Part shown: one piece after another, positions 13,042-61,337 of the stretch | Layout of the letters: each line of letters starts with the position of its first letter | Position numbering within the stretch: the first letter of the stretch is position 1 | Source: Thermodesulfobacteriota bacterium | GTDB lineage: Bacteria; Desulfobacterota_D; UBA1144; Nemesobacterales; JAJCZQ01 | DNA length: 64,000 nucleotides | Assembly (NCBI GenBank): GCA_965215275.1 | Contig: OZ244044.1 | Location: forward strand, 1,664,001 to 1,728,000 | Direction of reading: 5' to 3' | Made by a program: the position numbers and the translations under genes | Notes under the pieces: generated by a model | The model's database searches: none | What the model was told of the DNA's origin: nothing | What the model saw: the letters and a program-made list of their open reading frames with translations, nothing else

Positions 13042-16000
13042 ATGTTTAAGATAATACCCCCCCCCATCTAAGTTAATCCTTTCTTTATTCTTATTTTTTC
13101 TGTTTATACTGGTAATAGCTGCAAAAGGGCAGAGCAGCTCAGAAGAAACATTATCTGAATGCAGAGGTATGAGTGCAGACACGGAAGATCCGTTATACGG
13201 ATGTCAGTGGCATCTGAAGAACACTGGGCAGTTAAGTTTTTCCGGAAAGGAAATAACGGCAGGAGAAGATATAAACATAGAGGGAGTGTGGAACGAAGAC
13301 GTATACGGTACCGGAATTAACATAGCAATAGTAAGTGACGGTATCGACCTTTCACATGAGGACCTTTCTGCTAACGTCCGTTCCGGACTGCACTATGATC
13401 ATTCATACGGTTCATCCTTTAGTGGAACACAAGCGGCAGGTGTTATTGCAGCAACTGGATATAACGGACTGGGAGTAAGAGGAACTGCACCTGGTGCGAG
13501 TATATACAGTTACAGGTTATCCGGTGATATCAGTGAAGCGGACGCGGTGGTCCGTAATAAGGAAATAACTGCAGTATCGGTTAACGGCCTGGGATCTGAG
13601 GACGGATATTATTTTCAGGAGGCTTCATCTTCCTGGGAAGAAGGAGTGGAACTTGGTATAAAGAAAGGGTTTTATGGTAAAGGGGTGTTTTACGTCTGGG
13701 GAGCAGGGGATGGGCATGAGAATAACGATCAGGCTAATTTTTCTGAATATTCTAATTACTACGGCGTAACTGCCGTGTGTTCAACAGACGGCTTTGGAAA
13801 GAAGAGTATATTTTCAGAAGAGGGAGTAAATCTATGGGTATGTGCACCTGGTTCTGATATTGTAACTACTGATAACAACAACGATTACATTGTAACTTCC
13901 GGAACATTTCTTTCAGCTTCACAGGTTGGAGGAGTGGCAGCACTGCTGAGAGAGATAAACGGACAGCTGAGCTGGAGGGATATAAAGCTTATACTTGCGG
14001 GTTCAGCACGGCAGAACGATTTTTTTGATATGAGCTGGGAGACTGGAGCTGTTAAATACGGTTCTGATACGGAAAGATATAATTATAATCCTAAGTATGG
14101 TTTTGGCGTGGTAGACGCAGAAGCAGCTGCAGAGCTTGCAAAAAGCTGGAAAGGCGTTGGTGAAATGAGGACCGTTACAGCTTCTTCAGATAATGAGATA
14201 ACAATTCCTGATGGAGAAGGAGATGGAGAAGGAGAAGCAGACGGGATCCTTGTTTCCAGACTTATGATACCGGACCTTGAAGAAATATTTACGGAATTCG
14301 TTGAAGTAGAACTTGTTTTTTCGTGTGACTGCTTACAGGACCTTGATATAAAAATAACCTCTCCTTCCGGGACAATATCGGAACTTGTAAGGGAGTCTGT
14401 AAGTGGATCTTCGGATGAAGAAAAAAACTGCGTCAGTTACCTGAGAAGAACACATCGTTTCGGGTCGGCTAAACACCTCGGAGAAGACCCTTCCGGAGAA
14501 TGGATTCTCAATATAGCCGATACTGCTTCCGGAGATGAAGAAAATGGAGAAAATACTTTTACCTTACACTCTTGGAGCATTAAGGTATACGGGAATTTTT
14601 ATCAGGGACCTGGCAGTGAGACAGGTCCCAAAGATCATAATGTAAGTTTTGGCAATGCAACGATAGCTGAACAATCGTATAAAGTAGGTGAAGCAATAAA
14701 ACCATTAGTGCTGCCTCTCCCAATAACAGGGGGTGGTTACAGTCTTTCATTGTCTCCTAAATTACCTGATGGATTGAGTCGTAGCTTCCGAACTATAAGT
14801 GGAACACCAACTACTGCAACACCTGAGACCCTTTATACATGGACCGCCAGAGATAGTAACAGTGGAGATACGGATGAGTTAACGTTCAATATTACGGTAG
14901 AATCTGACATACCAACCTTCGGCAGTGAGACGGTAGAGGATCAGACGTGGTTTAATGGCAGCGCAGTAACGTTAACTCTGCCTCAGGCTACCGGAGGTAA
15001 CGGAACTTTAAATTACAGTTTAACTCCTGCTGAACCAAGTGGACTTACCTTTACCGAAAGCACCAGAATGTTAAGTGGAACACCCAGCATTTCTGCACAT
15101 CTACTTCCTTTAACTGTTACTTATACTTACAAGGTAACTGATGATGACGGTGATTCTGACAGTATTACTTTCTCTATTACTATAACAACGGACCTGGCCT
15201 TTGACAGTGGGGATGGGTCTTTTACTGATTTTTATACACTAATAGCAAATGCATTATCATCAATACCCACTCTAACGAGTAATTCGTTGCCTGCTGCAAC
15301 GGGAGGTACTCCTCCATATATATACAGTGTTACTCCTGTATTACCAGACGGATTAGCAGCGTATAACTCTAATGACAGAGTTATACGCGGGACACCAACT
15401 ACTGCAACGCCCAGGACTACCTATACGTATACCGTTACTGACAATAACGGACATACGGCTGAATTGATGTTCGATATTGCTGTAAGAGCACTCTTCATAA
15501 GTGCTGCTGTGATAAATGATAAGGTGTATTTAACCGGTACAGAAGTAACAGAAGTGCTGCCTGCAGCAGATGGACATAATGGAACGTTAACGTACAGTTT
15601 AACTCCCAATTTACCTTCCGGACTGGATTTTACCCCTGCCACCCGAGAGATAAGTGGAACTCCAGATACTGCAACTTCCAGAAGCACTTATACTTATACG
15701 GTAACTGACACAGATGGATTTAAGAACTCAAAGACGTTCAGTATTACTGTAAGAGCAGAACCGAACACAATGCCGACCTTCGGCAGTGAAACTATAGATA
15801 ATAAAGTGTATATAAACGGAGAAGCAGTAAATGAAACACTGCCAGAAGCAACGGGAGGGAATGCTCCTTTAACTTACAGTTTAACTAGTCTTGGGTTAAT
15901 TGATCTTAATTTACCAACTGAATTGGGATTTAATCCTGATACCAGAGTGTTAAGTGGAACACCCAACCTTGATGCACGAATACTTCCTGTAACTCGTACA

Positions 16001-16501
16001 TATACATATACAGTAACGGACGCAGATAATGATACAGATGAACTGGAGTTCAGTATTACAGTGGAAGAAGACAGCGAACCGGACTTCAGCGTGACGACGA
16101 TAGAAGATCAGGTGTACATGGGGAGATCAATAAGTTTGCCGGTAGCAACGGGAGGGAATGCACCGTTAGTATACAGTATAACGCCTCCCTTACCTCCTGG
16201 GTTGAGATTGGACAGAGACACAGGGATAATAAGCGGGACGCCCGCGAGTGCGTCGTCTGAGAGGACCTACACGTACACGGTAACGGACAGGAATGGAGAC
16301 ATTAAAGAGTTGACCTTCAGGTTCAGTGCAGCGGCTCCGCCACCGACAGGTAGTGATTCAGGCGGAGGTGGTGGAGGATGTGCTGTCTCAGATCAGAGCA
16401 GCACTGCTTCTGATATTCTCGGAGTAATGGCATGTCTGATACTTATACCTGTATCAGTAGCTATCAGAAGGAAGAGAAGGTCTCAGGTAAAAAAGCAGTA
16501 A
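13042..16501 (+). CDS. Surface protein: S8/proprotein-convertase-like domain, P domain, six putative Ig (He_PIG-like) repeats and a C-terminal sorting signal; frameshifted at the C9 tract (ORF track 13169-16501)
   Basis: DPLY..QWHL, G.G..IAIV.DG, YGFG.VDA and the P-domain motif GEDPSGEW.L. Repeats follow LP.ATGG..L.YS..P.LP.GL...R.ISGTP...TYTYTVTD. The tail is GGGGGGC-TM-RRKRR. Confidence 0.85.
13057..13065 (+). repeat. Poly-C tract (C9) between the ATG and the signal-peptide coding sequence
   Basis: ATG(13042) TTT AAG ATA ATA C9 ATC TAA. A C8 or C11 tract would join it to the long ORF. Confidence 0.9.
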
Positions 16502-30218: not shown

Positions 30219-31043
30219 CTAAGGTCCTTCCTGGATGGTTTTGCCTTCTGCCTTTCTGTCAAATGCCTTTTGCATTCGGTCAAGAATATCCTTGGTCGTT
30301 CGAACAGGGTCGTCGGATTTGTAGATCGGTCTTCCGATAACCAGGTAGTCGGAACCGTTCTCAACTGCTTCCTCCGGGGTGGTTGTGCGTTTATGATCGT
30401 CAGGACTTTCATTTAATCTGATACCGGGAGATACAACTACAAACTCCTCGTCTTTTTTTCCTTCCAGGTCAGTTCCGATAGCTTTTTTTATCAAACCGGC
30501 ATGTTTTCCTGATGCTACTACGCCGTCCGATCCGTGATCGTACGCTTGCCTTGCTCTGCGGATAACGTGGTCCTTGATGGACCGGGAACCTTCAATGTTG
30601 TAAATATCCTTGAGATCTTTTTCATCAAGGCTCGTCAGCAGGGTAACGACGAGTATTCTGGGTTTTCGTCTGCCGTTCTTTCCTCGCAGTGCGGCCTCTA
30701 TAAGGGAAGAACTCCCGTGTATGGTGCAGAATCGGACGTTCTCTGTTTTGGACAGTGCCCGTATGTAAGATTCAACGGTGTTTCGAATGTCGTAAAACTT
30801 AAGATCAAAAAAGACGTCGATGTCCCGTTGTGCTAAAAAGCTTAAAAAATCCCTTACGTTCGGTTCCGTACGGGTTGAGATCTCAAGAAAGTGTAAGTAG
30901 TTTATCTTTACCACACGGACCAGATCACCGAGCTTTCTGACCAGCTCCCTGCTTTCTGACACCGGCATGTCAAGTGAAAGGATCAGGCGGTCCTGGGCAA
31001 GGGGCCTTATGGCCCGTCCGTCTTTTTGAGCGGTTTTTGTCAT
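30219..31043 (-). CDS. pyrF: Orotidine-5'-phosphate decarboxylase
   Basis: LILSLD, DLKFYDI.NTV, VTLLTS, SPGIR and LVIGRPI motifs. Confidence 0.92.
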   Translation of the reverse strand: MTKTAQKDGRAIRPLAQDRLILSLDMPVSESRELVRKLGDLVRVVKINYLHFLEISTRTEPNVRDFLSFLAQRDIDVFFDLKFYDIRNTVESYIRALSKTENVRFCTIHGSSSLIEAALRGKNGRRKPRILVVTLLTSLDEKDLKDIYNIEGSRSIKDHVIRRARQAYDHGSDGVVASGKHAGLIKKAIGTDLEGKKDEEFVVVSPGIRLNESPDDHKRTTTPEEAVENGSDYLVIGRPIYKSDDPVRTTKDILDRMQKAFDRKAEGKTIQEGP

Positions 31044-31279
31044 TTTCTTTTGCCTGATAGGCAGGGCAGCAGCATGGAACTGAAACTGCCTGCGGTTTGC
31101 TGGTCTTGCTTTCAGATTAGCGTAACGAAAGCAAAGAAGTTATATTTCTGTTGTAACCAACCTGCCGTGATCTGCACTGTATTTTAACAGGCAAACAAAA
31201 TTTAACGGTTTTTTATAATTGTACAAGGGATTTATATACTTTAGTACCCAACAAAGGAGTTAATAGAAAAGTGTGATCG

Positions 31280-31288
31280 TGTTATAAT
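31280..31288 (+). promoter_or_regulatory. Extended -10 promoter for tnpB (near-leaderless)
   Basis: TGTTATAAT lies 9 nt upstream of the ATG at 31298, with no obvious SD between them. Confidence 0.5.
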
Positions 31289-31297
31289 TACAGAGTA

Positions 31298-32689
31298 ATG
31301 GATAGTGAAAAGAGGATAATTAAGCAGACGAGGACGGAACGCAGAGTGACTGGATTGAATCACCCTTCAACTCATAAGGGTTTGGAAAGGACTTTGGACC
31401 AGCTTACCTATCTGTATAACAGCGCTCTGGAAGAAAGGAAAGAAGCGTACAAAAAATACAAGAAGCTGAAGAAGTGGGGTTTGTCAGAAGAAAGGTTACA
31501 GATGTATTTCTACCCACAATGGGAGTTTGGTATTTCTTACAACAAGAAGAACAGAGTTAAATATCTGGATACAGTTTATGAAGCAGTTAACAGGTTAGTA
31601 AGTAATATCAGACCTTGTGATGATCCTGTTAACTGGAGAGAGTTATCAAAAGAAGAGCTAAAGAAGAAGTCAGTAAGTTATGAAGATCAGGCGAAGTCAC
31701 TGACGGAGATAAGGAATGATGTTTTATTGAAAGGATTCAGCAAGGTAGGTGTTCAGGCACAGCAAAGGACGTTAAAGAGAGTGGATAAGGCTTACAGTGA
31801 TTATATTAAAGGATTGAGAGGCAGTCCTAGATATAAGAACAGCAGCAGAAAGGTAAGAAGTTTTGAAACATATACATGGGGAAATGTAAAGAAAGGAGAG
31901 AGAAGGACATATTTAACGGTAAAGGGAGCAGGCAGGATCTCATTCAGGGGAAGAATACCGGAAGGAACAAAATACATAAGGATATTAAGAACAGCTTTAA
32001 GAGTGGAGGTTCAGTTTGTTTACGAGAAGATAGCTGGAGAGGACAGAGGACTGGACAGAGCGATAGGAATGGATCTTGGAGTAAGGAACAGGATTGCTTT
32101 ATCAGATGGGTCGTTTTACAAGGGAACTGAAGTAAGCAGAAAGAAAGACAAAAGAAAGCAGAGAGCAGTTTCAAGAGCTGAAAAAGGTTCCAACGGCAGA
32201 AAGAAGAAGGTAAAGCTGCTTGGGAAGGAACGAGCAAGAACAGCAATAAAGGAACATAACAAAATACACAGGTTAACTACAGAACTGTCAAGAGCGTATA
32301 ATTTTGTTATATCAGAAGATCTGAGATTAAAGGATATGAGCAGATCGGCAAAGGGGAACGTGGGAGATCCGGGTAAGAAAGTAAAGCAGAAATCAGGATT
32401 AAACAGGTCTTTACGGGAACAGCAGTTGGGCAAGGTATTAGATCAGCTTGAATACAAGGTTAAAAGCACTGGTGGCAAGCTGAGCAGGACTCCGGCTCAA
32501 TATACGTCACAGACCTGTTCTGAGTGCGGATACAGAGATAAAAGGAACAGAAAAGGAGAAGTATTTAAGTGTGTGTTTTGCGGTCATAAAGACCATGCAG
32601 ACACGAATGCAGCTATAAACATTTGCAATAGTGAAAACACGCTATGTCGGGTGGGACAGCCAGACTTGAGCTCCCGATGCAAGCTGTAA
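31298..32689 (+). CDS. tnpB: RNA-guided endonuclease TnpB
   Basis: RuvC motifs GMDLG, SEDL and ADTNAAINI; QKSGLNRS; YTSQTCSECG...CVFCG Zn finger. Confidence 0.93.
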   Translation: MDSEKRIIKQTRTERRVTGLNHPSTHKGLERTLDQLTYLYNSALEERKEAYKKYKKLKKWGLSEERLQMYFYPQWEFGISYNKKNRVKYLDTVYEAVNRLVSNIRPCDDPVNWRELSKEELKKKSVSYEDQAKSLTEIRNDVLLKGFSKVGVQAQQRTLKRVDKAYSDYIKGLRGSPRYKNSSRKVRSFETYTWGNVKKGERRTYLTVKGAGRISFRGRIPEGTKYIRILRTALRVEVQFVYEKIAGEDRGLDRAIGMDLGVRNRIALSDGSFYKGTEVSRKKDKRKQRAVSRAEKGSNGRKKKVKLLGKERARTAIKEHNKIHRLTTELSRAYNFVISEDLRLKDMSRSAKGNVGDPGKKVKQKSGLNRSLREQQLGKVLDQLEYKVKSTGGKLSRTPAQYTSQTCSECGYRDKRNRKGEVFKCVFCGHKDHADTNAAINICNSENTLCRVGQPDLSSRCKL

Positions 32690-32779
32690 ATGTTTTATCA
32701 AAAGAGAACGGGGAATTAAGAGGGACTCTGCTTGCAGAACAGTATGTTTAGTACTTGTGTATTAAAGTATATAAGTCCC
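32640..32779 (+). ncRNA. Probable omegaRNA/reRNA scaffold of element 1 (boundaries approximate)
   Basis: Expected position at the 3' end of tnpB. Stems: TCGGG/CCCGA (32647-77), TGCAAGC/GCTTGCA (32678-736) and TTTAGTAC/GTATTAAA (32747-66). Confidence 0.5.
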
Positions 32780-32795
32780 TAAACTGTTAGGAACA

Positions 32796-35210
32796 ATGAG
32801 CCTGCCCGTTAAAGTTTCCGTACCGTTACCGACCGACCGAACTTATCACTATACCGTTCCAGACAGTTTTATGAGGACCGTGGAGATCGGAAAGAGGGTA
32901 CTGGTACCTTTAAGGAACAGATTGACCATGGGTTTTGTCGTCGGGTTCGGGGACCCTCCCGAGGGTATTGAACTGAAACAGGTCATAGACGTGATAGATG
33001 ACAAGCCCCTTTTTGATGAGAACAGGTTGAAATTTTTCACATGGATATCCGGTTATTATCTATCCTCTCTGGGCACCGTGCTGAAAGCCGCCTATCCAGG
33101 GGGTATGGGAATTTCCCTGAACCGCCGTTTAAAAGTCACTTCAAAAGGCCTGAACAGCCTGGAACAGGGCTCAGGCGGTAAAAAACAAGGTAAAATACTG
33201 AACGTCGTTCACATATCTGAAAGCATCACTCCAAAAAAGCTGTTTGAACTTGTGGACGGCGTGAAATTTGCGGACCTGAACCGCCTTGTTAACAAAGGAC
33301 TTCTGGAATATAACTACCGTCTGAAAAAGCTGAAGCCCAGGTACAGTAAATTTGTAAGTCCGAACGAACGAACTGCCAAGGCACTTGAAGAACTGAAGAA
33401 AAAAATGCCTGCTAAAGCGTCGGTCCTTGAGTTCGTTAAAACCCATGGCAGGATGGAAGCCGATGAACTGAAGGTGATCTCCTCCGGTATCACTTCACAT
33501 ATTAAATGGCTTGAGGAAAGGGGCTTTATCGACGTGGAAACGAAAGAGGTCATAAGGGACCCTTTCAGAGGCATGGAGCACACGCCCGAGGCCTTGCCTG
33601 ATCTGACGATCGAGCAGAAAACCGCTTTAGCCAGTATAGATAAGGCGACCGGTGAGGGTGTACATTCAACGTTCCTGCTTCACGGGGTTACCGGGAGCGG
33701 TAAGACGGAAGTATACATGAGGGCGATCGATTCCGTTTTAAAAAAGGGTAAGGAAGCAATAGTCCTGGTTCCTGAAATATCTCTGACACCACAGCTGGTC
33801 AAGAGGTTCAGAAGCCGGTTCGGGGACAAGGTTGCAGTTATACACAGCCTTTTGAACGACGCTGAAAGGTCTGACGCGTGGAAGGCGGCAATTAATGGGG
33901 ACGTTAAGATAATTATCGGTGCAAGGTCAGCCGTCTTTGCTCCATTTAAGCATCTGGGAATTATCGTCGTTGACGAGGAGCACGAGAATACCTACAAACA
34001 GGAGGACAGGCTTTGCTACAATGCAAGGGACGTTGCAGTTGTTCTTGGCCGTGATATGGGTTCCGTTGTGATACTCGGGTCTGCAACGCCGTCCGTGGAA
34101 TCATACTCGAACTGCCAGAGACGTAAGTTCGAGTATCTCACTCTGCCTCTCAGGATGGGATGCGGCAGCCTTCCTGAAGTTGAGGTCGTGGACATGAGAA
34201 AGCAGAGCGGTCCTGTCTTTTCCAGTATCCTTAAGAGAGAAATAGCAGAGAACTTTGAAAGAAAAGACCAGACCGTTCTTTTTCTGAACAGAAGGGGTTT
34301 TTCCACCTTCCTGATCTATGAGGACAGTGGGGAGATATTTTACTGTCCTAACTGCAGTATCCCTTTTACCTTTCACAGGGCCGACAACAAGATAAAGTGT
34401 CATTACTGCGGAACGTCAGAAGATTTCGGTTTTATGCAGAAAACCGCAAAGTCACCGCTCAGGGGATTAGGTATCGGAACGCAGATGATAGAACACGAGC
34501 TGAAAAACCTGCTCCCTGACGCCAGGATAGAGAGAATGGACAGTGACTCAACGGGAGGAAAGAACAAGTTCCTGGAACTGTATAAAAGACTGGAAAGAAA
34601 GGAAATTGACGTTCTGATCGGTACGCAGATGGTTGCAAAAGGACATGACCTGCCAGGCGTAACGCTCGTGGGAGTGATATCGGCTGATACCTCGCTGAGC
34701 ATTCCGGACTTCAGATCGGGAGAAAGGACCTTTCAGCTTATAACCCAGGTGGCAGGAAGGGCCGGAAGGGGCAGGTCCCAGGGCAGGGTGATCGTGCAGA
34801 CGTATAATCCGGATCATCCGAGCATCCGCTTTGCCAGGTCGCATGATAGTAACGCATTTTTACAGAAAGAGATGGACATAAGGCAGGCTGCGGACTATCC
34901 ACCGTTTTGCAGGCTCGTCGGTTTTAGGTTCAGCGGTACTGATGAGAACGTGCTTATTGAAACGGTGAAAAAGATCGATAAAATAGTAAAAACGGCGATT
35001 TCCGGACTTACGCCGGGAGCAGTGGTAATGCTCGGGCCTTCCCAGTGTCCTGTGTACAAGATAAAAAACAGGTTCAGGTGGCAGATGATACTGAAAGCAA
35101 AACAAATAAAACTTCTGCATGCTTTTTCCAAAAACCTGTATGATGACCTTTTGGTCCATAAGAACAGGATCAGGATCACGATGGACGTTGATCCCGTGAA
35201 CTTCAGTTAG
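32796..35210 (+). CDS. priA: Primosomal protein N' (replication restart helicase)
   Basis: GVTGSGKTEVY, PEISLTPQ, DEEHE, GSATPS, LNRRG and QVAGRAGR motifs. Confidence 0.96.
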   Translation: MSLPVKVSVPLPTDRTYHYTVPDSFMRTVEIGKRVLVPLRNRLTMGFVVGFGDPPEGIELKQVIDVIDDKPLFDENRLKFFTWISGYYLSSLGTVLKAAYPGGMGISLNRRLKVTSKGLNSLEQGSGGKKQGKILNVVHISESITPKKLFELVDGVKFADLNRLVNKGLLEYNYRLKKLKPRYSKFVSPNERTAKALEELKKKMPAKASVLEFVKTHGRMEADELKVISSGITSHIKWLEERGFIDVETKEVIRDPFRGMEHTPEALPDLTIEQKTALASIDKATGEGVHSTFLLHGVTGSGKTEVYMRAIDSVLKKGKEAIVLVPEISLTPQLVKRFRSRFGDKVAVIHSLLNDAERSDAWKAAINGDVKIIIGARSAVFAPFKHLGIIVVDEEHENTYKQEDRLCYNARDVAVVLGRDMGSVVILGSATPSVESYSNCQRRKFEYLTLPLRMGCGSLPEVEVVDMRKQSGPVFSSILKREIAENFERKDQTVLFLNRRGFSTFLIYEDSGEIFYCPNCSIPFTFHRADNKIKCHYCGTSEDFGFMQKTAKSPLRGLGIGTQMIEHELKNLLPDARIERMDSDSTGGKNKFLELYKRLERKEIDVLIGTQMVAKGHDLPGVTLVGVISADTSLSIPDFRSGERTFQLITQVAGRAGRGRSQGRVIVQTYNPDHPSIRFARSHDSNAFLQKEMDIRQAADYPPFCRLVGFRFSGTDENVLIETVKKIDKIVKTAISGLTPGAVVMLGPSQCPVYKIKNRFRWQMILKAKQIKLLHAFSKNLYDDLLVHKNRIRITMDVDPVNFS

Positions 35211-42138: not shown

Positions 42139-42969
42139 TCAATTTTTTAAAGAACCTAGAAATTCAATTAAAAAGTCTAAGAACTCAATTAAGTCGTTAG
42201 TTGCACTTGTAATTACATAAAATAAAATAATAATTACATAAATTCCCGGAATACCAACAGCTTTTCCTGCTGTAGCAAGCCCAAAATTACCAACAAGACT
42301 ACCAATTCCAAAAACATGAATTAAAACTCCAGCAGTAGAAACAGCAGCAGGCAATAGTAAGGCAACTTGCAATTTTTGCTTAAAAGTTAATTGATCCCAA
42401 ATTTTTGGAATCTCATCTTTTATAGATTTAATTGCAGACTCTATAATTTTTAAACTAGAAAGAGTCTTTCCCAGTTCTTTAAACCATTTTCCTTTTTCAG
42501 ATAAGCTTGCGTTATCCTCGGGAACAGTTTCTCTATGTTTTTTTAAGTCTCTTAAGATGTCTTCAAGATTATCAGCATCAGCAAACTTATCCTTCGATCT
42601 TATAATCGCATCCTTTAAGATGTTAAGAAGCAAACTTTTGTCTGTATTATTCTTGTCTTCATTAGCTCTTTGGTTTTTTTCAGGCTTTCTGAACAGTTCA
42701 GAAAAATCGCTATAATAAATAATTCGTTGACCTGCCGGTATCTCAATAGTTGTTCCTGCCTTTCCCTCTCTGTCGACTAAAACACTTAATCTTACTTCCT
42801 TAATCTCACTTGGTAAATCTGGCTTTTTTTTCAGGCGATCTTCAAGGTTTTTAATATTCTTGCTGATCCTATCAAGTACTTCTGACCACTCAGGTGTTCC
42901 CTGTGGGCACGAGTTGACAGTATCAATTCGGTAATTGATTAGGTCAATTAGGTCAACGATGTCATTCAT
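42139..42969 (-). CDS. Hypothetical helical protein with C-terminal Gly-rich hydrophobic hairpin (paralog 1)
   Basis: High identity to 42966-43751; AT-rich sequence. Confidence 0.75.
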   Translation of the reverse strand: MNDIVDLIDLINYRIDTVNSCPQGTPEWSEVLDRISKNIKNLEDRLKKKPDLPSEIKEVRLSVLVDREGKAGTTIEIPAGQRIIYYSDFSELFRKPEKNQRANEDKNNTDKSLLLNILKDAIIRSKDKFADADNLEDILRDLKKHRETVPEDNASLSEKGKWFKELGKTLSSLKIIESAIKSIKDEIPKIWDQLTFKQKLQVALLLPAAVSTAGVLIHVFGIGSLVGNFGLATAGKAVGIPGIYVIIILFYVITSATNDLIEFLDFLIEFLGSLKN

Positions 42970-43751
42970 TTCTTTTCTCTAAAGAATGCAATTAAAAAGT
43001 CTAAGAATTCAATTAATCCGCCAGTTACAAATAATAAGATAAGAATTACAAGAATAGCCGGAACACCAACAGCTGTTCCTAATCCAGCAACCCCAATATT
43101 ACCAATCAAAATACCAACTCCAACAACAGGCCCTAGTAAGGCAACTTGGATTTTTTGCTTAAAAGTTAAGTGCTTCCAAATTTTTGGAATCTCATCCTTT
43201 ATAGATTGAATTGCAGGTTCTATAATTTTTAAACTATACAGAGTCTTTGCCAACTCTTTAAACCATTGTACTTTTTCAGATAAACTTGCGTTATCCTCAG
43301 GAACAGTTTTTCTATGTTCTTCTAAGTTGCTTAAGATTTCTTCAGAATTGCCAGCATCAGCAAATTTATCCTTCAATCTTATAACTGCATCCTTTAAGAT
43401 ACTAAGGAGCGAACTTTTGTCTGTATTCTTCTTGTTATCATTAGTTCTTTGGCTTTCTTCAGGTTTTCTGAGCAGTTCAGAAAAATCACTATAAGAAATA
43501 ATTCGTTGACCTGCCGGTATCTCAATGGTTGTTTGTGCCTTTCCTTCTCTGTCGACTGAAACACCTAATCTTACATCATTAGTCTCACTTGGTAAATCTG
43601 GATTTTTTTTCAGATGACCTTCAAGGTCTTCAATATCCTTCCTGATTCTATCAAGTGCTTCTGACCACTCAGGTGTTCCCTGTGGATGTGATGAGTTAAT
43701 AATATTGATTTGGTCATTGATTTGTTTGATTAGGTCGACTATATCATTCAT
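42966..43751 (-). CDS. Hypothetical protein (paralog 2)
   Basis: Shares MNDIVDLI, PQGTPEWSE, TTIEIPAGQRII and LTFKQK.QV with paralog 1; its stop overlaps the start of paralog 1. Confidence 0.75.
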   Translation of the reverse strand: MNDIVDLIKQINDQINIINSSHPQGTPEWSEALDRIRKDIEDLEGHLKKNPDLPSETNDVRLGVSVDREGKAQTTIEIPAGQRIISYSDFSELLRKPEESQRTNDNKKNTDKSSLLSILKDAVIRLKDKFADAGNSEEILSNLEEHRKTVPEDNASLSEKVQWFKELAKTLYSLKIIEPAIQSIKDEIPKIWKHLTFKQKIQVALLGPVVGVGILIGNIGVAGLGTAVGVPAILVILILLFVTGGLIEFLDFLIAFFREKK

Positions 43752-43766
43752 TTCGTTTCTCCAAGT

Positions 43767-44246
43767 CTATTTTTTGAAAGAACTTGATAATTTAATTAAG
43801 CAGTCTAAGAATTCAATTAATCCTTTAGTTACAAATAATAAAATAAGAATTACAAAAATAACCGGAATACCAACAGCTGTTCCTAATAAAGCAACCCCAA
43901 TATTACCAACAAAAATACCAATTCCAATAACAGGCCCTAGTAAGACAACTTGCAATTTTTGCTTAAAAGTTAATTGATCCCAAGTCTTTGAAATCTCATC
44001 TATTATAGCTTTAATTGCAATTGCGGGCTTTATAATTTTTAAAAAACTTGACAGAATCTTTGCCAGTTTAATAAGCCATTTTACTGTTCGGAATAAGCTT
44101 GCATTATCCTTGGTAAAAGTGTTTCTATGCTTTTTTAAGTCTCTTAAGACATCTTCAAAATCACCATCATTAACACACTTATCCTTCAATCTTCTACACA
44201 TATTCTTTAAGATGTTAAGGAGTGAACTTTTGTCCGTATTTTTCAT
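43767..44246 (-). CDS. Hypothetical protein (paralog 3, lacks the N-terminal domain)
   Basis: Begins at NTDKS and matches the C-terminal part of the other two. Confidence 0.65.
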   Translation of the reverse strand: MKNTDKSSLLNILKNMCRRLKDKCVNDGDFEDVLRDLKKHRNTFTKDNASLFRTVKWLIKLAKILSSFLKIIKPAIAIKAIIDEISKTWDQLTFKQKLQVVLLGPVIGIGIFVGNIGVALLGTAVGIPVIFVILILLFVTKGLIEFLDCLIKLSSSFKK

Positions 44247-60034: not shown

Positions 60035-61337
60035 GGGAACTATATACTTAAGTATCCAGTGGATACTAAAAGTTCTCTTTGACGAGTCATAGACCAGTTC
60101 CTGTCCCCAACCCCTCTGCAGTCTCCCCGTCCAATCACCCCTTTCCCTGAGGCTATAATTTGTTTTATTCCAGTTTCCAACTGGTTAAATGCAGCATTTA
60201 AGTCAGCATTAACTTCATAACCGCAAGATATACACTTAAATCTGGATTGCGATATTCTGTTGTCAGGAGATCTGTGTCCGCATTCAGAACAGGTTTGACT
60301 GGTATATGGAGCTGGAACTTCTTCAGTAGCATTACATTTATAATCCAGCATCCTTTTCATATCAAACCAGCCAGTAGCACGAATGTTCCTGTTCATCTTG
60401 CGAAAGTTCTTCCATTTCTTTCTGGCTGTCATCCCTTGTGTATTAAGTCTCTCAAGTATAGGAACATCATAAAGATCGGAGATCTTTCTTGTAACCTGAT
60501 GTCTCCAGTCCTTCTGTCTGTTTGCCAGCTTCCTGTGAAGTTTCTGCAACCTTTCCTTAGTAATTCTCCACCTGTTACTTCCCTCTTCCTGACGTGCAAG
60601 TTTCTTTTGGTATCTGCGTATCTTTGCTTCTGTAAGTTCATCATCAGATAACTTAAAAACCTGTCCGTCAGACAGCGTAACCTGTCTTGAATTCCTGTCC
60701 ATTGCTACAACTCTTACTTCTTTCTTTTCCTCTTTAGTTTCATCTATCTCATAGTTAAGGTACGCATACCACTTACCGCATTCCTTCTTGATCCTGCCAG
60801 AAAGGAACTTTCCATCAGGATAAGGATTCTTACCTGCCAACCTGAACCATCCAACCTGAACCATCCAACCTTTAAAATACGGACCCAGTTATTGTCTGAC
60901 AGTTTAGCTGACTGATAATTTACCGGAAACGAAGGAGTAGTTTTTAATTTACTCTTGAATTTAGGTTGTCCCGATTTTCCATTCCTGTATCTCTTACAGG
61001 CATTTGTAAGGTCCAGTAAATAATGCTGAAGTATGTAAGCAGATGCTTCTTTCAGAAAGTAGTTCTTTTCTTCTTTCTTAAACTCTCTTAAAAAATTCCC
61101 TAAACTCTCATGACTATAACCATCATTAAAATCGTTATCCCTTAAAATCCCTGTAAAGTGATTCCATACAAACCTGCAACAGCCAGCAGTAGAGGAAAGT
61201 TTATGAAACTTCTCCCTGTTGTTTGATCTCAACCTCTGCCTTACCGTTCTTATTGTCTTACCTTCTTTCATATTTGTAATTTTATCTTATTCCCTTGCTT
61301 TTTTTAAGTAGTTTGGATACTTAAGTATATAGTTCCC
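60035..61337 (-). mobile_element. TIR-bounded, non-autonomous tnpB element 2 (1303 bp) with 8-bp TSD
   Basis: Perfect 24-bp IR GGGAACTATATACTTAAGTATCCA (60035-58 and 61314-37). The direct repeat TTCTATAT flanks it at 60027-34 and 61338-45. Confidence 0.93.
60040..61271 (-). pseudogene. tnpB: TnpB split by a 14-bp tandem duplication (405 aa if repaired)
   Basis: The N-half has CRFVWN and PKFKSK; the C-half has AMDRN, LERL, TSQTCSECG and NADLNAA. CCAACCTGAACCAT is repeated at 60837-50 and 60851-64. Confidence 0.9.

Follow-up and report, generated by a model that had tools for sequence, protein, structure and literature searches.

A tnpB gene between IS1595-type transposon ends and a TAM-like motif beside the insertion sites of its relatives

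What reason could a DDE transposon have to keep an RNA-guided nuclease when its target duplication cannot encode a TAM? A tnpB element in the window, the 64-kb stretch of DNA analysed here, opens this question to test. Coordinates are positions in this window unless marked 'genome', and features lie on the plus strand unless stated otherwise.

IS1595-type ends around a solitary tnpB

The element spans 31227..32779 (1,553 bp) and sits between two divergent host genes, pyrF on its left (30219..31043, minus strand) and priA on its right (32796..35210), which starts 17 bp past the element. Its G+C content is 40%, compared with 48% in the flanks. The left (31227..31251) and right (32755..32779, minus strand) terminal inverted repeats (TIRs) are identical at 22 of 25 positions, as an earlier note on this DNA had read them. 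The core GGGA-nn-TATATACTT, which the note described as common to both ends and to a second element of the window (element 2), is present in all three places, the left end of element 2 being alike at 21/25. That these repeats mark the true boundaries is supported by three sister copies (genome 82022, 772121 and 1041602), whose homology ceases exactly at the ends of the element. DNA identity was 95.5–96% for the two of the three sisters compared, and the sister at genome 772121 has an additional second, outer left end. A contig of another run, X9 (32718–32904), crosses the right junction without differences, which rules out an assembly error there; the left junction is unbridged.

The left TIR is of the IS1595 type: in this genome most transposase elements of that family have ends that agree with it at 19–20 of 25 positions. 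The right TIR agrees at 22 of 25 with one end of an intact IS1595 element (genome 675417–678070). A TIR profile returned 163 sites in the 1.99-Mb genome and 2 in a locally shuffled copy, so the similarity of the ends is not due to chance. PF12762, the IS1595 DDE domain, has 28 hits in the genome. Both of the transposase proteins tested passed the NF033547 model, and clean TIRs of this end family together with a 7–8/8 duplication were found at 8 of the 27 transposase loci examined. Between the ends of our element lies tnpB alone, without a gene for a Zn-finger DDE transposase. Given the common ends and the presence of IS1595 transposases in the same genome, the element is a non-autonomous derivative with IS1595 ends and not a member of the IS1595 family proper. 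Its ends may fit the ISNwi1 subgroup pattern of IS1595. Common ends and duplication length suggest that the element is likely mobilized in trans by an IS1595 transposase.

An IS1595 transposase in cis with tnpB was found neither among the 27 transposase loci of the genome nor among the TnpB loci examined. The candidate autonomous tnpB element L092 (2,505 bp) was rejected, as its IS630-like transposase (family assigned by eye) is merely nested at a CTAG near the left end. This nested element (L092:1211–2470), just inside the left TIR, gives a false impression of DDE–TnpB linkage.

Several clean IS1595 elements of the genome carry methylase or nuclease cargo. Transporters with DNA methylase and restriction-like genes lie at genome C1 675417–678070, 1002026–1005187, 1304051–1307389, 1516018–1519071 and 1812584–1815955; one IS1595 transporter has an 11-fold AEQSR-coding tandem repeat ahead of a methylase-HNH-like gene.

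Just inside the left end of our element is a candidate sigma-70 promoter of tnpB (31260..31288; 10/12 consensus positions with a TG extension), predicted by a consensus scan that found 5 sites compared with 3.0 expected in shuffles. Element 2 (60035..61337, minus strand) combines the same TIR family and a perfect 8-bp duplication with a TnpB of a distant lineage, clade C. In the assembly its tnpB is frameshifted into pieces of 175 and 274 amino acids; the element is 14 bp longer than its intact sister, and an apparent 14-bp tandem duplication causes the frameshift. Intact sisters are located at genome 202418 and 714634. Elsewhere, the window contains a repeat-rich region with a subtilase bearing a P-domain and six He_PIG repeats (13169–16501), and three tandem paralogous repeats ~800 bp apart, with two long ORFs lacking a Pfam match (42139–44233).

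A probably eroded target duplication in the priA promoter

The 8-mers flanking the element, TTGTACAA and TAAACTGT, agree at 1 of 8 positions and are thus not duplicated. The earlier note had suggested age or an adjacent deletion as a possible cause of the missing duplication, which fits an empty-site alignment with four relatives (G001–G004). In these the priA promoter consists of a -35 box, a spacer and a TAAACT-like -10 box ~10 bases before the start. The joined flanks of the element align to these promoters with a net excess of three bases, as would result from an 8-bp duplication minus five bases lost on the right, with one substitution on the left. From this one alignment with species-level relatives we infer that the duplication was eroded by a single left substitution and a 5-bp loss on the right. 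The left copy of the former duplication would lie at 31219..31226 and carry the substitution; the left flank bearing the motif discussed below is intact.

A -35-like box at 31201..31206, which aligns with TTGGAC/TTGAAC of the four relatives, appears to be the stranded part of the interrupted priA promoter. This copy is apparently an older one whose insertion split the priA promoter from its -35 box, and transcription of priA may now start from the tnpB promoter. No terminator was found between that promoter and priA.

Copies of clade A, the group of this element and its sisters, have diverged by ~4%, and erosion of the duplication is at least as frequent in transposase elements. Age therefore suffices to account for the lost duplication, and its selective loss against self-cutting was rejected. 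Flank swapping between copies was also rejected, as no other TIR end has the left 8-mer of this copy as its partner. An empty-allele joint was not seen in the contigs of four runs; contigs show presence, not absence.

Copies and distribution

The earlier note had taken the association of these TIRs with TnpB for a family rather than an accident. The genome supports this with 19 full-length TIR-flanked tnpB copies, and relatives occur elsewhere. Its copies form four groups: A (this copy and its three sisters, 93–95% protein identity), D (67%), B (43%) and C (29%, including element 2). Target duplications are 8/8 in nine copies, 7/8 in three, 6/8 in four and 4/8 or fewer in three, so that 12/19 keep 7–8 matching bases. 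At genome C1 1616480–1619604 two clade D elements stand back to back with 16 bp between them, and both have a duplication of their own.

Internally deleted miniatures of 257–326 bp (genome C1 1742864–1743187; L192; L203) retain both TIRs, the RNA region, a 7–8/8 duplication and a G at −1, the base 5′ of the left duplication; they could provide guides to TnpB supplied in trans. Orphan remnants of the guide RNA that lack tnpB are numerous and lie at genome C1 292708, 376692, 494676, 522451, 655990, 794444, 890742, 1113557, 1484858, 1790311 and 1886807, and four such remnants end in a CCG-type TIR variant.

When searched with this protein, 9/41 genomes contained relatives, and TIR-flanked relatives were present in 5/5 genomes of f8, another family of the order. 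A right-end pattern matched in 24/120 genomes of the phylum, and in 19/37 within f8. Its reversed control gave 8 matches in 6 genomes, so single right-end hits outside f8 may be chance. Homologues enclosed by these ends and 8-bp duplications occur in MAGs labelled Hyphomonadaceae, Rhodobacteraceae, Gammaproteobacteria, Binatia, Poriferihabitaceae and Ca. Dadabacteria, with ~23 TIR-flanked copies in one Hyphomonadaceae-labelled MAG. TIR pairs were found at 11/16 phage loci, one with a perfect duplication. Plasmid searches returned distant TnpBs only (~30–35% identity).

A separate TnpB lineage with the same TIR family is found on viral contigs L217–L221 and L223–L228. This phage lineage has a G just outside the left 8-mer at 4/4 distinct sites and a perfect duplication at one only, and in two cases (L219:2050–2130 and L221:3083–3163) a second right end follows in tandem ~40 bases on, like a two-unit proto-array. 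At L118, L132, L133 and L136, TnpBs lie between other inverted repeats (GGGTAG, GGGTAC and GGGTGC starts) with no clear duplication; these are possibly further captures of transposon ends.

TnpB is intact and conserved between copies

The tnpB gene (31298..32689) encodes 463 amino acids, with RuvC residues D259, E340 and D435 and a C4 zinc finger (C407/C410/C425/C428). The earlier reading of an intact catalytic triad and zinc finger holds in a 59-sequence alignment, where D259, E340 and the four cysteines are invariant and D435 nearly so. The protein scores 164 bits on NF040570 (cut-off 100) and falls far below the cut-offs of the IS200 and IS607 TnpB models (106.8 of 425 and 76.4 of 350). The best fold matches of its predicted structure include ISDra2 and ISFba1 TnpB. 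As had been noted, the two TnpBs of the window are very different: the motif is GMDLG here and AMDRN in the element 2 lineage, and identity to the intact sister of element 2 is 28% over 296 amino acids.

Alignment places a ~68-residue insertion in the REC lobe (31451..31660, approximate limits) that is restricted to clades A and D; between N41 and Y128 there are 87 residues here compared with a median of 19. The region is poorly modelled (pLDDT <50 for residues 64–122), and among the best 150 hits of a search of 1.84 billion representatives the insert had no match outside its own lineage.

With the last 75 codons excluded, dN/dS of this tnpB against its sister copies was 0.20–0.27. Values of 0.20–0.37 were obtained within clade A and of 0.12–0.44 elsewhere, with 0.72 for one near-identical pair. 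These ratios indicate that tnpB is under purifying selection between copies.

A predicted guide-RNA scaffold that ends in the right TIR

Among clades A, B and D conservation runs from the end of tnpB through the last C of the TIR and then ceases. Alignment and pair counts predict an omegaRNA scaffold that includes 32646..32779. It would comprise two stems (32646–32651/32673–32678 and 32679–32684/32730–32735), a terminal hairpin whose 3′ arm is the inner TIR (32747–32754/32759–32766), and a loop GGGAC (32653..32657) predicted to form a pseudoknot with the TIR tip GTCCC (32775–32779). In this four-helix structure 92% of cells are paired and 37 cells show two-sided change, a number reached by 0/500 shuffles and by no slid control, although the rows are kin. 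The single-strand fold is no better than shuffles (z −0.31).

Of 70 elements scanned, 67 have a GGGA-type loop, mostly 80–135 bases upstream, that is able to pair with the TIR tip. The fifth position of this pseudoknot is unpaired in 10 of the 67; where it pairs, it is A-U in 53 (the state of clades B and D), C-G in 3 clade A elements, of which this copy is one, and G-C in 1. This fifth pair is the one that covaries, the GGGA core varying too little for a test. A search of Rfam gave no relevant match, only three chance-level eukaryotic hits. The predicted pairing matches the 3′ pseudoknot described for TnpB RNAs (PMC10711439).

In this model the TIR tip is probably where the scaffold ends, and the pseudoknot predicted there would put the start of the guide at the tip or one base after. 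Counted from this scaffold boundary, the predicted guide is 32780..32799, which covers the remnant of the right duplication, the priA -10 box, the ribosome-binding site and the start. No second full match to it was found in the genome. Several elements lie just upstream of a host start codon, and their predicted guide overlaps the ribosome-binding site; in the present copy this is the site of priA. The right flank begins with T in 15/15 elements of clades A, B and D, with A in 10/10 of the L048 group and with A in 14/19 of the Hyphomonadaceae set; this first base may be part of the TAM or of the scaffold.

These results bear on the possibility that tnpB is passive cargo, like the methylase genes of IS1595 elements, or that the guide is a fixed internal sequence following a conserved GAACAG. 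The IS1595 elements of this genome do carry much unrelated cargo, and several tnpB copies are frameshifted or deleted, as the first version would have it. It is opposed by a dN/dS of ~0.2 between copies and by the one-sided flanking motif described below, which is not expected from a passive gene. A fixed internal guide is at odds with the stretch that follows GAACAG, which covaries with the inner TIR as its pairing partner. We consider either version very improbable.

A lineage-specific base outside the left duplication

A guide that starts in the duplication requires the TAM to lie just outside the left copy. In a larger group of 44 elements, which was defined after seeing the data and has 19 rows from one genome, the base 5′ of the left duplication is G in 43/44 and the dinucleotide is TG in 34/44. 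The mirror position on the right has G in 13/43 and TG in 4/43, and the control ends of 15 transposase elements have G in 1/30 and TG in 0/30. Rows with unclear or shared ends (L051, L060, L061, L088, L105, L113, L114 and three in this genome) were left out. In a held-out set of 27 fetched loci, all 11 elements with an intact duplication had the G (10 distinct sites), compared with 1/11 at the mirror position.

The motif differs between lineages, including those that share this genome: clade B has G in 8/8 (TG), clade C has TA in 3/3, and the L048 group has purine-purine in 9/10. TG was present in 5/5 of the youngest copies (<0.5% diverged), and decayed element remnants were mixed. A one-sided, lineage-specific base of this kind looks like a TAM, and the aligned flanks suggest that this TAM is TG in the parent clade.

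Clade A/D, which is nested in the TG clade, has G at −1 in 0/7 and A in 7/7. At the present copy the candidate TAM position outside the left duplication reads ATAA (31215..31218). An A at −1 is also found in 15/30 control ends (p 0.028) and 5/7 mirror positions, and the four-base pattern found in 7/7 clade A/D sites compared with 3/16 was chosen after the fact. Weak as this motif evidence is, the lineage probably has an A/T-rich TAM ending in A. The switch from G to A coincides with the 68-residue REC insert of clades A and D; that the insert caused it is a guess.

Target sites were no more alike than column-shuffled ones (p 0.38–0.67; held-out set p 0.55), and relatedness of copies was not linked to similarity of targets (Mantel p 0.18–1.0). 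Sites are therefore not chosen by guide pairing, and guide-directed site choice was rejected.

The motif might instead reflect the one-sided target preference of an unsampled cognate transposase, to which the TnpB lineages adapted their TAM as in IS200/IS605. Such co-adaptation of TAM and transposase is a pattern reported in PMC10711439; TIR subtypes do vary between TnpB clades, and our control consists of only 15 elements, three of them with the CGT end type. Those controls nevertheless have G at −1 in only 1/30 ends, and two lineages of the same genus with near-identical TIRs differ in motif (TG and purine-purine). Both observations make this explanation distinctly improbable.

Proposed drive at empty sites or coupling to the transposase

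The insertion sites record the putative TAM almost without exception, for which the only explanations are a chromosomal gene drive of great strength or a coupling of TnpB to the transposase. We think it probable, without being confident, that a trans-mobilized element spread because TnpB cuts alleles that lack it. An IS1595 transposase encoded at another locus would move the element in trans into AT-rich 8-mers, with little regard to the TAM motif. The TnpB RNA would end at the right TIR tip and continue into the new flank as guide, and TnpB would then cut alleles having both the TAM and the uninterrupted site. Repair of the cut empty allele would copy the element back in, restoring or spreading it. 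Insertions without a TAM would gain nothing, so fixed copies would be mostly TAM-adjacent, the drive acting as a filter that leaves almost no others fixed. Cutting by IS200/IS605 TnpB is reportedly a precedent for such restoration or spread in the work of Meers et al. Cutting of empty sites by TnpB is described in PMC11870625 (for IS200/IS605) and PMC13565253.

As the youngest copies already conform and transposase-only elements become fixed without a drive, such a filter would need both speed and great strength. This also fits direct coupling. In that case TnpB and its TIR-containing RNA would bind TAMs and steer the IS1595 transposase into starting its 8-bp staggered cut next to the TAM, and nuclease drive would be secondary. 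Coupling would be in line with a bias that is near-absolute (43/44; 11/11 held out), is found in 5/5 of the youngest copies and follows the TnpB lineage, and with the lack of the motif at the most similar-ended transposase elements (L071, L145, L146 and L148). It accords poorly with a TnpB that keeps every catalytic residue. Transposon-targeting relatives such as Cas12k are nuclease-dead. Nor is there guide-like similarity among the sites, or an element joining IS1595 transposase and tnpB in cis among the loci examined. We therefore regard coupling as unlikely and retain the spread by cutting of empty alleles as the preferred account.

Probable captures of IS1595 ends

In a 52-row TnpB tree this element falls in a clade with support 100/99, in which these TIRs are present in every one of the 15 rows whose context is known. 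The clade of element 2 is a separate one (100/99), and the Poriferihabitaceae copies are in a third place. Monophyly of all TIR-flanked TnpBs gave p values of 0.069, 0.019, 0.032 (mixture model) and 0.00012 (phage rows added) in AU tests and was thus rejected in 3/4; branches were long, and the comparison rows with other ends were few and classed by eye. The earlier proposal that the association is old or arose more than once gains support on both counts, from the deep clade and from the rejected monophyly. At least two captures of IS1595 ends by TnpB is the likelier reading, and one old capture with later escapes would break monophyly too. A more elaborate account has several lineages take IS1595 ends independently, rebuild their RNA on the TIR and steer the transposase beside the TAM with the nuclease still active, the change here from TG to an A-ending TAM accompanying the REC insert; we give this account little credence.

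At L007:385–660 (G019:C4, minus strand), three 39-base repeats with 66-base spacing, of which the third is partial, come after a TnpB that is sister to the TIR-flanked L048 group and for which no left TIR was found. The repeats end TATTCCCAAG like a TIR tip, and the upstream RNA region is still homologous to that of L048. The repeats are a candidate CRISPR mini-array born from the right end of a TIR–TnpB element. The repeat was found in 1/5 genomes of its genus.

Comparison with known systems

The general arrangement, a TnpB within DDE transposon ends, is already published. Altae-Tran et al. (2023) described six DDE-associated TnpB branches with inverted ends, DDE-1 to DDE-6, as well as solo TnpBs between the same ends, for which trans movement was proposed (PMC10691335). 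What we add is an explanation from empty sites, a held-out test of the motif, a motif switch between lineages, an estimate of selection and a test for multiple origins. These TnpBs and ours share the position between inverted terminal repeats and a 3′ end near the transposon end. In contrast to the DDE branches, the present family showed no cis transposase at the loci examined, and it has several TnpB lineages on one end family and a motif that varies by lineage. The supplement describes DDE-5 systems as having a TA motif that precedes the predicted end by 8 bp (PMC10691335), a geometry identical to that seen here. Clade C has TA as its motif (3/3), and TA also occurs in 3/7 of clade A/D, with AA at this copy and TG in the parent clade. 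As compared by the supplement text only, DDE-5 could be the same family.

IS1595 is unnamed in the main text of PMC10691335, in the sections consulted, and in those of its supplement it appears only within a list of transposase models. The DDE partners given for TnpB in the corresponding part of a 2026 review are ISL2, IS630 and IS1031 (PMC13565253). In the open-access literature searched, a scope outside which ISfinder/TnCentral entries and most subscription papers fall, IS1595 is not named as a carrier of TnpB.

IS1595 elements have GG-starting TIRs and usually 8-bp flanking duplications (PMC8101967). Both features recur here, and IS1595 transporters and non-autonomous elements likewise hold passenger genes between the same ends. 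The difference is that no transposase is present here and that an RNA-guided nuclease takes the place of the passenger, its RNA apparently having absorbed the right TIR. With IS1341/IS605/IS607 elements (ISDra2, ISFba1 and ISXfa1) the element shares the protein fold and catalytic residues and, as predicted, the right-flank guide and 3′ pseudoknot (PMC10711439). Unlike it, those elements are described as having neither TIRs nor duplications (PMC13565253), and their transposase fixes the TAM. Membership of IS200/IS605 (IS1341), which needs hairpin ends and no TIR or duplication, was rejected given the TIRs and 8-bp duplications of this family; membership of IS607 was rejected for the same features and for the absence of a serine recombinase.

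The family is a source of compact TnpBs whose predicted TAMs (TG) are very short and, as predicted, of a natural change of TAM that goes with a REC insertion. It also parallels, in bacteria, the capture of Fanzors by TIR transposons; Merlin is related to IS1595, its bacterial counterpart. The Fanzors of eukaryotic DDE transposons are likewise RNA-guided nucleases within TIRs and a duplication, and TIR bases form part of their RNA (PMC10711439). In Fanzors, the 5′ duplication is described as part of the TAM and the 3′ copy as part of the scaffold (PMC13565253). Here, in contrast, the 8-bp duplication is variable and the motif lies outside it, which leaves the duplication unable to provide the motif.
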